Positions 4,487-57,198 of a stretch of DNA of 64,000 bases are shown here, piece after piece. Location: the NCBI RefSeq assembly GCF_055900595.2, contig NZ_CM148325.1, one strand, 5' to 3'. The notes below the pieces were generated by a model. That model made no database searches, was not told the DNA's origin, and was given only the letters and a program-made list of their open reading frames with translations. The first letter of the stretch is position 1; each line of letters begins with the position of its first letter. The position numbers and the translations under genes were made by a program.

Positions 4487-4512
4487 TTCTCCCGATTTCC
4501 TCAATTGAAATG

Positions 4513-4541
4513 AACCCGATGATCTGCGCATCGGGTTTTTT
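4513..4541 (+). terminator. Rho-independent terminator after cheW (end of motA-motB-cheA-cheW operon)
   Basis: Hairpin aacccgatg / catcgggtt followed by T-run (tcgggtttttt) read directly in sequence. Confidence 0.75.
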
Positions 4542-4572
4542 ATTTCAATTTCGCGGCGGGTGGCATCAGCAA

Positions 4573-4599
4573 TAAAGTTTCCCCCCTCCTTGCCGATAA
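4573..4599 (+). promoter_or_regulatory. sigma28 (FliA) class III promoter of the tar-tap-cheRBYZ operon
   Basis: TAAAGTTT (4573-4580), 11-nt spacer, GCCGATAA (4592-4599): perfect match to the sigma28 consensus, about 30 nt upstream of tar ATG. Confidence 0.85.
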
Positions 4600-18046: not shown

Positions 18047-18883
<837 letters not shown>

Positions 18884-20290: not shown

Positions 20291-20314
20291 TCCTCGTTGA
20301 TCAGGGAGGAAGTT

Positions 20315-22744
20315 ATGACATTAACAAGACGTGAATTTATTAAACACAGCGGTATTGCCGCTGGGGCGCTGGTGGTGACATCGGCTGCACCGCTACCCGC
20401 ATGGGCAGAAGAGAAGGGGGGCAAAATCCTCACCGCGGGCCGTTGGGGAGCGATGAACGTAGAAGTGAAGGACGGGAAGATTGTTTCTTCGACAGGCGCG
20501 CTGGCGAAAACCATACCGAACTCCTTACAGTCTACGGCGGCGGATCAGGTACATACAACGGCGCGTATTCAGCATCCGATGGTGAGAAAAAGCTATCTCG
20601 ATAATCCACTGCAACCGGCGAAAGGTCGTGGCGAAGATACCTATGTACAGGTGAGCTGGGAACAAGCATTAAAACTTATTCATGAGCAACACGATCGCAT
20701 TCGCAAAGCTAACGGACCATCGGCCATTTTTGCCGGATCTTACGGCTGGCGCTCTTCTGGCGTGTTACATAAAGCGCAAACCTTACTGCAACGTTATATG
20801 AATCTTGCGGGCGGTTATTCAGGGCATAGCGGCGATTATTCAACCGGGGCGGCACAGGTAATCATGCCGCACGTGGTGGGTTCCGTGGAGGTGTATGAAC
20901 AGCAGACCTCCTGGCCACTGATTCTGGAAAACAGTCAGGTGGTGGTGTTGTGGGGGATGAACCCGCTGAATACCTTAAAAATTGCCTGGAGCAGTACCGA
21001 TGAGCAAGGTCTGGAATACTTCCATCAGCTGAAAAAATCTGGCAAACCAGTGATTGCCATTGATCCTATCCGCTCCGAAACCATCGAATTCTTTGGCAAT
21101 AATGCCACCTGGATCGCGCCGAATATGGGCACCGACGTGGCACTGATGTTAGGGATTGCACATACCCTGATGACACAAGGCAAACACGACAAAGTGTTCC
21201 TTGAAAAATACACCACCGGATATCCGCAATTTGAAGAGTACCTCGCAGGTAAGAGCGATAATACGCCGAAGAACGCGGCCTGGGCGGCGGAAATTACTGG
21301 CGTAGCGGAAGCGCAGATAGTCAAACTCGCCGAACTGATGGCGGCGAATCGCACAATGCTGATGGCAGGCTGGGGAATTCAACGCCAGCAATATGGTGAA
21401 CAGAAACACTGGATGCTGGTGACGCTGGCGGCGATGTTAGGGCAGATTGGTACACCGGGCGGCGGGTTTGGTTTCTCTTATCATTACTCAAACGGTGGCA
21501 ACCCGACGCGTGTTGGCGGCGTGCTGCCGGAAATGTCTGCGGCGATTGCCGGACAGGCCAGCGAGGAAGCTGATGATGGCGGAATGACGGCGATTCCTGT
21601 CGCCCGTATTGTTGATGCGCTGGAAAATCCTGGCGGCAAATATCAGCATAACGGTAAAGAACAAACGTATCCGAATATCAAAATGATCTGGTGGGCGGGT
21701 GGCGGTAACTTTACCCATCACCAGGATACCAATCGTCTGATTAAAGCATGGCAGAAACCGGAGATGATCGTCGTTTCTGAATGCTACTGGACCGCAGCTG
21801 CTAAACATGCAGATATCGTATTACCGATCACTACATCGTTTGAGCGCAATGACTTGACGATGACCGGTGATTACAGCAACCAGCATATTGTACCGATGAA
21901 GCAGGCTGTCGCTCCGCAATTTGAAGCGCGTAACGATTTTGATGTGTTTGCCGATCTTGCTGAATTACTCAAACCTGGCGGAAAAGAGATCTATACCGAA
22001 GGTAGAGATGAAATGGCGTGGCTGAAATTTTTCTATGATGCCGCTCAGAAAGGTGCGCGTGCGCAACGCGTGACTATGCCGATGTTTAATGCTTTCTGGC
22101 AGCAAAATAAACTGATCGAAATGCGCCGCAGCGAGAAGAACGAACAGTACGTTCGTTATGCTGATTTCCGCGCCGATCCGGTGAAAAATGCGCTGGGTAC
22201 GCCAAGCGGCAAAATTGAGATCTACTCTAAAACGCTGGAAAAATTTGGCTATAAGGATTGTCCGGCACACCCAACCTGGCTTGCGCCTGATGAGTGGAAG
22301 GGTGCCGCCGACGAGAAACAGTTGCAGCTTCTGACCGCGCATCCGGCACACCGTTTACACAGTCAGCTTAACTATGCTGAGTTGCGTAAAAAATATGCGG
22401 TTGCCGATCGTGAGCCGATCACTATTCACACCGAAGATGCTGCTCGCTTTGGTATTGCGAATGGCGATCTGGTGCGTGTCTGGAACAAACGTGGTCAAAT
22501 CCTGACAGGCGCGGTGGTGACTGACGGGATTAAAAAAGGCGTGGTATGCGTGCATGAAGGTGCATGGCCGGATCTGGAAAATGGCCTGTGTAAAAACGGC
22601 AGTGCGAACGTGTTAACGGCGGATATTCCCAGCTCGCAGCTGGCGAATGCCTGTGCCGGTAACTCTGCGCTGGTGTATATCGAAAAATATACGGGCAATG
22701 CACCGAAGTTAACGGCGTTTGATCAGCCAGCTGTTCAGGCATAA
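20315..22744 (+). CDS. torZ: TorZ (BisZ) periplasmic molybdoenzyme, TMAO/biotin-sulfoxide reductase 2 (809 aa)
   Basis: ORF track 20297..22744 trimmed to ATG 20315 ([21 protein letters not shown]... twin-arginine Tat signal). Confidence 0.94.
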
Positions 22745-22799
22745 GACGTGAAAAGCGCCCGGAAACGGGCGCTAAATTGCTGAGAAAGTGTGCTTTGTT

Positions 22800-22902
22800 C
22801 ATGCCGGATGCGACGTGAACGCCTTATCCGGCCTACAAAATTGTGCAAATTCAATATATTGCAGGAGATGAGTAGGCCTGATAAGCGTAGCGCATCAGGC
22901 AG
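22800..22902. repeat. REP/BIME cluster between convergent torZ and cmoB
   Basis: tgccggatgcgacgtgaacgccttatccggcctac and taggcctgataagcgtagcgcatcaggca palindromic REP units. Confidence 0.65.
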
Positions 22903-22951
22903 TTTTTGCGTTTGTCATCTATCTCAGCGCCCGGAAATGGGCGCTAAATTT

Positions 22952-25099
<2,148 letters not shown>

Positions 25100-56978: not shown

Positions 56979-57198
56979 AACATTTAAGCTGATGACCACC
57001 ACGCTTTTTATTGACCATTTTGCACGCAAACTGGAAAACCTGGCGTCGTCATCTATTCTTAAAGGGCAAGGCAACTAAGCCTGCATTAATGCCAACTTTT
57101 AGCGCACGGCTCTCTCCCAAGAGCCATTTCCCTGGACCGAATACAGGAATCGTGTTCGGTCTCTTTTTATCTGTTAAAAGCCAGAAGCATTCCCTTCG
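56950..57198 (-). ncRNA. ryeA: RyeA (SraC) sRNA, antisense to and fully overlapping SdsR; ends approximate
   Basis: Established ryeA/ryeB antisense pair between yebY and pphA; 3' end set at the 56936..56978 terminator, 5' end from recalled about 249-nt length. Confidence 0.5.
57066..57168 (+). ncRNA. sdsR: SdsR (RyeB) sigmaS-dependent sRNA, about 103 nt
   Basis: Sequence gcaaggcaactaagcctgcattaatgcc...gaatcgtgttcggtctcttttt matches recalled SdsR incl. terminator; upstream -10 tattct with -13 C. Confidence 0.8.

Follow-up and report, generated by a model that had tools for sequence, protein, structure and literature searches.

In the stretch of Escherichia coli DNA analyzed here (64 kb, hereafter the window), the convergent genes torZ and cmoB are separated by a 207-bp intergenic region in which one hairpin occurs twice, once on either side of a pair of REP sequences. 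How did such an arrangement come about? Elements of the REP/BIME type are usually said to be without the terminal repeats and target duplications that mark transposition. How they spread is an open question in the field (Ton-Hoang et al.), and torZ-cmoB bears on it as a clean three-state locus: some alleles are empty, some hold a unit between duplicated hairpins, and some hold one in the opposite orientation.

The Duplicated Hairpin Between torZ and cmoB

Gene names were taken from annotated E. coli homologues, and the exact CmoB protein of the window is found in public collections as E. coli CmoB. torZ stops with a TAA at 22742-22744, which leaves 9 nt between the end of its ORF (22744) and the first hairpin copy, while the cmoB stop codon on the minus strand (22952-22954) lies 1 nt past the second (Table 1). 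The true start of torZ is probably near 20315, since the listed ORF opens at the first TTG and the annotated E. coli gene measures 2,430 nt.

The hairpin belongs to a direct repeat with a start-to-start spacing of 172 bp. The first-pass annotation had described it as a 24-bp hairpin duplicated with one mismatch; the duplication stands, with 24/25 positions identical and exactly two occurrences in the 64-kb window when up to three mismatches are allowed (0.00 expected from 100 shuffles), but the repeat is actually 25 nt long. A similar agc/ctcagc context had also been noted ahead of both copies, and here we found nothing in common beyond one extra A. CTCAGC, which runs into the start of copy 2, mirrors the GCTGAG directly after copy 1, and the two belong to the inverted repeat with which the inserted unit begins and ends. 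Whether the direct repeat at this locus is 20 or 25 nt long is itself ambiguous, since a mutated unit end (CAGATT) could account for the AAATT that follows copy 1.

In each copy a GC-rich stem of 8 bp carries a GAAA loop, and the sole difference between the copies turns the loop-closing G-C into a G-T. With a GC-rich stem-loop and a T run on the transcribed strand, the duplicated hairpin has the predicted makings of an intrinsic terminator. On the plus strand copy 2 gives a terminator-like site at 22926-22945 (8 pairs, 6 of them G-C) with the T-run tail AAATTTTTAC; on the minus strand copy 1 is followed by TTTTCAC and scores below the threshold of the terminator scan. Copy 1 is accordingly labeled here as the predicted U-tract-bearing terminator for cmoB and copy 2 as a terminator-like site for torZ.

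Table 1. Features of the torZ-cmoB region in window coordinates.
Feature	Position	Strand	Basis or detail
torZ (TMAO reductase 2) coding region	20297..22744	+	ORF list; E. coli homologues annotated torZ
Direct-repeat copy 1, predicted terminator hairpin + AAATT, AGCGCCCGGAAACGGGCGCTAAATT	22754..22778	.	stem 22754-22761/22766-22773, GAAA loop
Left terminal segment of unit, GCTGAGAAAGTGTGCTTTGTTCAT	22779..22802	+	alignment to copies elsewhere; inverted repeat
Y-type REP/palindromic unit, GCCGGATGCGACGTGAACGCCTTATCCGGCCTAC	22803..22836	+	inverted-repeat analysis, alignment
L linker, IHF-consensus-like core AATTCAATATATTG	22837..22871	+	Rfam ES036/CssrF match
Z1-type REP/palindromic unit, inverted vs Y REP, GTAGGCCTGATAAGCGTAGCGCATCAGGC	22872..22900	+	inverted-repeat analysis, alignment
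Right terminal segment of unit, AGTTTTTGCGTTTGTCATCTATCTC; family consensus A[G/A]TTTTGCGTTTGTCATCAGTCTC	22901..22925	+	alignment to copies elsewhere
Direct-repeat copy 2, predicted terminator hairpin + AAATT, AGCGCCCGGAAATGGGCGCTAAATT	22926..22950	.	C>T at loop-closing pair
cmoB (tRNA U34 carboxymethyltransferase)	22952..23923	-	ORF list; homologue annotation

The Unit Between the Copies Is a Complete BIME-1

BIME-1 (RIP/RIB), the bacterial interspersed mosaic element type 1 of E. coli, combines two palindromic units, Y and Z1, with an L linker between them that has an IHF site. Positions 22779-22925 (147 bp) hold a complete element of this kind, ordinary for its type: composition, order, size (~140-150 bp) and extragenic position at the 3' ends of convergent transcription units are the same, the sequence matches Rfam ES036 and can be aligned over its whole length with other E. 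coli copies, and the element itself is no different from them. The L-linker family, Rfam ES036/CssrF, matches over its full length at 22837-22879 (68.4 bits against a gathering score of 37.6), and this is the one BIME-1 L-linker match within the 64-kb window. The linker core is conserved in all copies aligned, and published accounts of RIP/RIB elements are the basis for placing a putative IHF site in the linker. The Y and Z1 REPs constitute a 14-nt inverted repeat (93% complementary) in a single, non-tandem unit, and both align with those of ymdF-rutG, yiiF-fdhE, fepA-entD, and other copies.

Of the ~150 bp with two REP palindromes that the first-pass annotation had placed between the hairpins, the 147 bp and the two inverted REPs hold; the mobile unit, however, is larger than the REP pair and adds terminal segments of ~24 nt outside the REPs (24 nt on the left and 25 nt on the right, around a linker of 35 nt). 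The left terminal segment agrees with the family consensus, (CAGATT)GCTGACAAAGTGCGCTTTGTTCAT, and forms an inverted repeat with the right one. When the 147 bp were used as a query, matches at other loci were obtained in all 5,425 E. coli genomes with any match (99% of length, ~90% identity), and every E. coli genome has matches elsewhere that cover at least 80% of the unit, with a median of at least 40 places per genome. Because these matches run from end to end, the inner flanks of the hairpins belong to a dispersed unit of ~152 bp with defined ends. The ends of the unit family, (T)CAGATTGCTGACAAA and TTTGTCATCAGTCTC, are imperfect terminal inverted repeats in which ~12/15 positions agree after one is reverse-complemented. 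Folded as single-stranded DNA, the Y REP pairs with the Z1 REP and both outer hairpins form (MFE -47.6 kcal/mol, z = -5.7, with 0/200 shuffles folding as well). The feature table of NC_000913.3 lists no repeat features at torZ-cmoB or ymdF-rutG.

The same Rfam scan gave further gathering-level matches in the window, namely the MicL sRNA at 18574-18881 (+), C0465 at 4506-4583 (-), and the SraC/RyeA-SdsR/RyeB pair at 57028-57172 on both strands. These are expected for this region of the E. coli chromosome and have no bearing on the BIME-1 finding.

Alleles of the torZ-cmoB Spacer

Alleles were surveyed in 5,426 complete E. coli genomes, with empty alleles counted by means of a 99-nt junction query. 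The allele of the window (W, 207 bp) occurs in none of the 5,426. It does occur in four independent GenBank assemblies with an identical 207-bp spacer, so that W is real and no assembly artefact; the exact CmoB protein of the window is present on 218 contigs, and all 4 places listed carry the identical spacer. The first-pass annotation had proposed looking for a single-hairpin, REP-free allele, and such an allele proved common; the outcome named there as refuting, with both copies and the REP block in every related genome and no empty site, was not observed. Allele E (35 bp, GACGTGAAAAGCGCCCGGAAACGGGCGCTAAATTT) was found in 1,207 of the 5,426 genomes (22%), on flanking haplotypes of several kinds. 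It has a single hairpin, with an A/T tract on either side and without any REP, and corresponds to W with exactly 172 bp taken out (the block together with one copy of the repeat).

The majority state is allele K (164 bp), in which one hairpin is followed directly by a BIME-1 in the opposite orientation, with no duplication. The unit of K is without the cmoB-proximal terminal segment, and AGTAATACCAGACCT stands where AAATTT would be. This allele was found in 3,885 genomes (72% of E. coli), L002/L004/L007 being among the loci that carry it, and its presence in E. albertii as well indicates that it is old. In a fourth allele, R, from an ~92%-identical Escherichia species (L008), one hairpin is followed by a unit in the orientation of the window with a truncated right end. 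K and R both lack the cmoB-proximal terminal segment though their units are oppositely oriented, and in both a 15-nt AGTAATACCWGAMCT follows the unit in place of AAATTT, ahead of the cmoB stop; by eye, no relation of this segment to the hairpin, the terminal segments or the REPs was found. The history of the site is more complex than a single insertion, with an older, non-duplicated BIME-1 at the same site in most E. coli and in E. albertii.

Some individual loci have been altered further. In the K allele of E. coli FDAARGOS_1249 (L087), an internal deletion of 48 bp has taken out most of the Y REP together with part of the linker, so that the spacer measures 116 bp. Downstream of cmoB in GCA_019280135.1 (L224), a K allele is broken inside the Z1 REP, directly after GTAG, by unrelated ATACTGTTATGGCCTGCAAG..., which may be an IS or other element inserted into the REP. 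torZ is repeatedly damaged as well: in GCA_017058015.1 (L094), which has the W spacer, likeness to the window stops ~100 nt inside torZ and gives way to invertase/resolvase and phage tail-fibre-assembly genes; torZ of Z0117EC0005 (L091) has an internal stop; and that of strain 605 (L006) is a partial pseudogene.

The Same Architecture at Other Loci

Metagenome contigs together with all collected loci (1.74 Mb) were scanned with an nhmmer profile of the unit, which resulted in 123 full-length copies in 16 site/orientation groups. Left and right flanks (40 nt per side) were then scored against each other, with 236 mismatched left/right pairs as control. Four groups score 16.5-24.5 (W, ymdF-rutG, the fbp site, and the L183 site) against a control maximum of 11.5 in 236 pairs, and three further groups score 9-9.5, at or above the 99th percentile of mismatched pairs. 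The right repeat copy begins exactly at the unit terminus in 7/7 scoring groups, and the left copy ends 0-2 nt ahead of the unit terminus in 6/7. Strict hairpins in the 80-nt flanks are similarly placed, with 12 of 14 lying 0-2 nt off a unit terminus versus ~1.5 expected.

Units bracketed by duplicated terminator hairpins of 21-27 bp are present at ymdF-rutG, lpdA-yacH, DUF2569-fbp, and the L183 site. The repeat is a perfect 23/23 at the fbp site (AAACGCCGGAGCAATCCGGCGTT) and a 27-nt hairpin at the L183 site (AAATGGCGCTGTAAAAGGCGCCATTTT). The duplicated hairpins are specific to their loci and all mutually different, each of them a GC-rich stem-loop, and the duplication lengths at the five sites (20-25, 21-23, 21, 23, and 27 nt) each coincide with the local hairpin. 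ymdF-rutG, lpdA-yacH, and DUF2569-fbp lie between convergent genes, and each has single-hairpin empty alleles. The ymdF-rutG spacer measures 82 bp when empty versus 256 or 268 bp when occupied; at lpdA-yacH a unit is present in 494 genomes, and most others are 171 bp shorter there. At occupied sites the unit, whose ends are defined, has the host hairpin to its left and to its right, and at empty sites the hairpin occurs once. About half of the sampled units have one flanking hairpin or none.

Two of these loci show what can happen at such a site. At ymdF-rutG, units of either orientation are found, flanked in each case by two copies of the hairpin. With a likeness of only ~86% between these units, two independent insertions in a symmetric target are a better explanation than a simple flip. 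At the L183 locus (L183:1072-1222 and downstream) we found a tandem hairpin-unit-hairpin-unit-hairpin array, the expected product of unequal crossing-over, which shows that flanking repeats do recombine. A sister allele at this site (L149) has one unit and the right-hand hairpin only; its loss of the left hairpin shows how single-hairpin sites could derive from two-hairpin sites.

Hairpin loops were in some cases reverse-complemented while the stems were unchanged, as between L104 and L221 at the fbp site and in L216 at ymdF-rutG (K-12); the flipped loops read AGCAAT versus ATTGCT and GTTAC versus GTAAC. This is the pattern expected of intrastrand template switching within palindromes.

Flanking Haplotypes and the Direction of Change

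The 3' sequence of cmoB in the window is nearest to that of strains with allele E, and every top match aligns from the hairpin onward. The nearest strain, EC42405, carries allele E and is 96.0% identical; most of the differences fall in a cluster 51-162 nt into cmoB, and there are none in the 50 nt that adjoin the spacer. Read from these flanks, W and E are sister alleles. No immediate parent or offspring of W is present among the sampled genomes, nor is there an empty site on the haplotype of the window, the closest being at 96%.

Outgroup genera are uninformative on polarity: in Citrobacter, Enterobacter, Kluyvera, Salmonella, and others torYZ lies away from cmoB, whose stop is not followed by the hairpin. 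A scan of species representatives gave, among the matches listed, E. albertii and one other Escherichia species, and the further lineages sampled through the CmoB protein cluster yielded K-type alleles and Salmonella only.

The last ~300 nt of cmoB (window 22952-23450) are unusually polymorphic in E. coli. In a comparison that covered loci L001-L005, L091, and L229, most pairs had 11-33 differences per 300 nt and one pair only 4, in a mosaic that does not track the intergenic allele. The window and Z0117EC0005, otherwise 99% identical, differ at 22/300 sites in the 3' part of cmoB and at 1/300 in the 3' end of torZ. This pattern suggests recombination patches or long-lived haplotypes beside the BIME site.

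Probable Insertion Into a Shared Terminator and Its Alternatives

We consider it probable that the 207-bp spacer is the footprint of one full-length BIME-1 inserting in the bidirectional intrinsic terminator shared by torZ and cmoB. The first-pass annotation had already read the locus as a shared convergent terminator duplicated when a REP/BIME block inserted, and the empty alleles, the complete dispersed unit, and the four parallel sites all support that reading.

The strongest competitor, which we judge unlikely though deserving of real weight, holds that the hairpin-unit-hairpin arrangement is old and that the 35-bp empty alleles are secondary, produced by recombination or slippage between the 25-nt repeats, so that the window would show an occupied site that survived, not a recent insertion, and insertion with duplication would have taken place much earlier. 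An empty allele could indeed arise from W by recombination between these repeats, and the tandem array at the L183 locus shows such exchange between flanking repeats. The units of W and R are also alike in orientation, in the left junction between hairpin and unit, and in the linker end GCAGGAGA[T/A]GA; the closest copy to the L008 unit is that of the window (90.9%), and this likeness would allow an old insertion followed by later excisions. In addition, the window unit is at least 5% different from every other sampled copy, and the exact flanking haplotype of the window is on no E-allele genome. Against this, W is confined to one lineage with identical sequences and is absent from all 5,426 complete genomes, whereas E is in 22% of genomes across several flanking haplotypes, a distribution that favours insertion into an E-type site; the two hairpin copies, moreover, differ at merely 1/25 positions, and the orientation and junction shared with L008 are also explicable by site-specific insertion of related master copies. 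Either polarity requires an insertion-with-duplication event.

It is very unlikely that W arose by a crossover within the unit, between two older alleles, one carrying the unit on the right of the hairpin and the other on its left, with no target duplication at insertion. One-sided alleles of the sort needed do exist, at torZ-cmoB (K and R) and at the L149 locus, but an allele with the unit left of the hairpin is absent at torZ-cmoB from the 5,426 genomes and the outgroups. The same history would call for two independent same-orientation insertions on either side of one hairpin at each of five loci, and at ymdF-rutG two such histories, one for each orientation, would be required.

Formation of W in situ from K, by palindrome-mediated inversion and duplication (for example, replication template switching at the hairpin) and with no new unit, would account for the inverted orientation of the W unit relative to K and for a junction common to K and W copy 2 on opposite strands, in which the hairpin abuts GAG(A/G)T..ATG(A)CAAACG; the flipped loops between hairpin copies and alleles likewise show template switching at these palindromes. 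We nevertheless hold this origin, too, to be very unlikely: K is without the left terminal segment and the AAATTT tail, both of which are in W, and W is without the AGTAATACCAGACCT of K; the core of the W unit is nearer to the yiiF-fdhE copy (94.9%) than to K (about 90%); and the cmoB haplotype linked to W groups with E alleles, not with K. Finally, the notion that the two hairpins are independent terminators alike by chance or convergence, as short GC-rich stems of similar composition might be, or that they are an assembly artefact, is effectively refuted by the 24/25 identity versus 0.00 expected in shuffles, by the exact single-copy empty allele, and by the identity of W in four independent assemblies.

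Discussion

If a BIME-1 did insert in the shared terminator, the target would have been GACGTGAAA-[AGCGCCCG GAAA CGGGCGCT]-AAATTT, which would survive as the 35-bp allele, and the inserted DNA would comprise ~147-152 bp made up of a terminal segment, the Y REP, the IHF linker, the Z1 REP, and a second terminal segment. We propose that breaks were made in the two strands, one on each side of the palindrome and 0-5 nt beyond the base of the stem, that the unit was joined, and that fill-in then duplicated the complete hairpin. Fill-in of a whole hairpin would make the length of the duplication (20-27 bp) track the size of the hairpin and not a fixed enzyme spacing, which points to structure-directed cleavage of an extruded hairpin or cruciform. 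A speculative candidate for the enzyme would be the REP-associated Y1 transposase, which might read the GC-rich terminator stem as a REP-like hairpin on both strands. This transposase recognises hairpins, cleaves some distance away, and can act on either strand (PMC3333891). The family of the known REP-associated Y1 transposases, however, makes no target duplications (PMC3333891, PMC2817692), which counts against that enzyme.

Each hairpin copy in the window retains one of the two flanking A/T tracts, which would place the U-tract-bearing terminator of each gene on the far side of the unit. As predicted from this layout, the mRNAs of torZ and cmoB should both carry the BIME-1 in their 3' UTR, crossed before termination. 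The flanking direct repeats would also permit unequal crossing-over, leading to tandem amplification, as seen at one locus, or to precise loss.

Compared with REPIN/RAYT systems (REP doublets moved by Y1 HUH transposases such as E. coli TnpA-REP/YafM), the unit is alike in its inverted REP doublet and its long single-stranded hairpin. Transposition of the IS200/IS605 type with a Y1 transposase leaves no target duplication and involves no terminal inverted repeats (PMC3333891, PMC2817692). The window unit, in contrast, reaches ~24 nt past each REP and belongs to a family flanked by duplications of 20-27 bp; instead of the duplication-free insertion of the RAYT type we found a host duplication of 25 nt here and of 21-27 nt at four other loci.

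The unit resembles bacterial MITEs (such as Correia, RUP, and Nezha) in its small size, imperfect terminal inverted repeats, flanking host direct repeats, and stable fold, and in that related genomes have sites with and without it. The duplications of MITEs are short, of fixed length, and set by a DDE transposase, whereas those of the BIME-1 unit vary over 20-27 bp and coincide with a palindrome, so that the unit shares the terminal inverted repeats of MITEs but not a short target-site duplication of fixed length. We know of no parent IS with ends matching the unit. One review describes REPs as being without MITE signatures (PMC3184786).

Insertion directed by an intergenic DNA stem-loop, with genes spared, has further parallels. 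Group IIC introns insert after intrinsic terminators. IS1397/ISKpn1 and IS621 target hairpins, inserting into REPs (PMC3184786, PMC1525189). In all of these an autonomous element takes the REP or terminator as its target without duplicating it whole, whereas at torZ-cmoB the REP-containing element is the insert and the terminator is what was duplicated.

Presence or absence of BIME-1 among strains has already been published, according to the passage in PMC1187871 that cites Bachellier 1997. In the literature searched, the primary BIME papers of the 1990s aside, we found no description of whole-hairpin duplication or of terminal inverted repeats. If those papers already describe the duplication, the finding reduces to a well-documented new allele. 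The object in the window is a new allele of a known element, and it may also represent an under-appreciated general footprint of BIME-1 insertion. Tentatively, and with rather less confidence than a firm proposal would demand, full-length BIME-1 could be regarded as MITE-like mobile elements that integrate at the terminator hairpins of convergent genes, with cleavage at the base of the palindrome and a duplication that is the whole hairpin (20-27 bp).

Taken together, the three states of torZ-cmoB and the four parallel loci suggest an insertion rule in which a bidirectional terminator hairpin serves as target and its palindrome is duplicated in full. If true, the hairpin-duplication reading would give E. 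coli REP/BIME elements their first insertion footprint at the sequence level; mechanism, and not selection alone, would explain BIME-1 at the 3' ends of transcription units, and terminator hairpins would offer a concrete substrate for identifying the enzyme that moves BIME-1. For the host, the 3' UTRs of torZ and cmoB, and possibly transcript stability or termination efficiency, should differ between strains.
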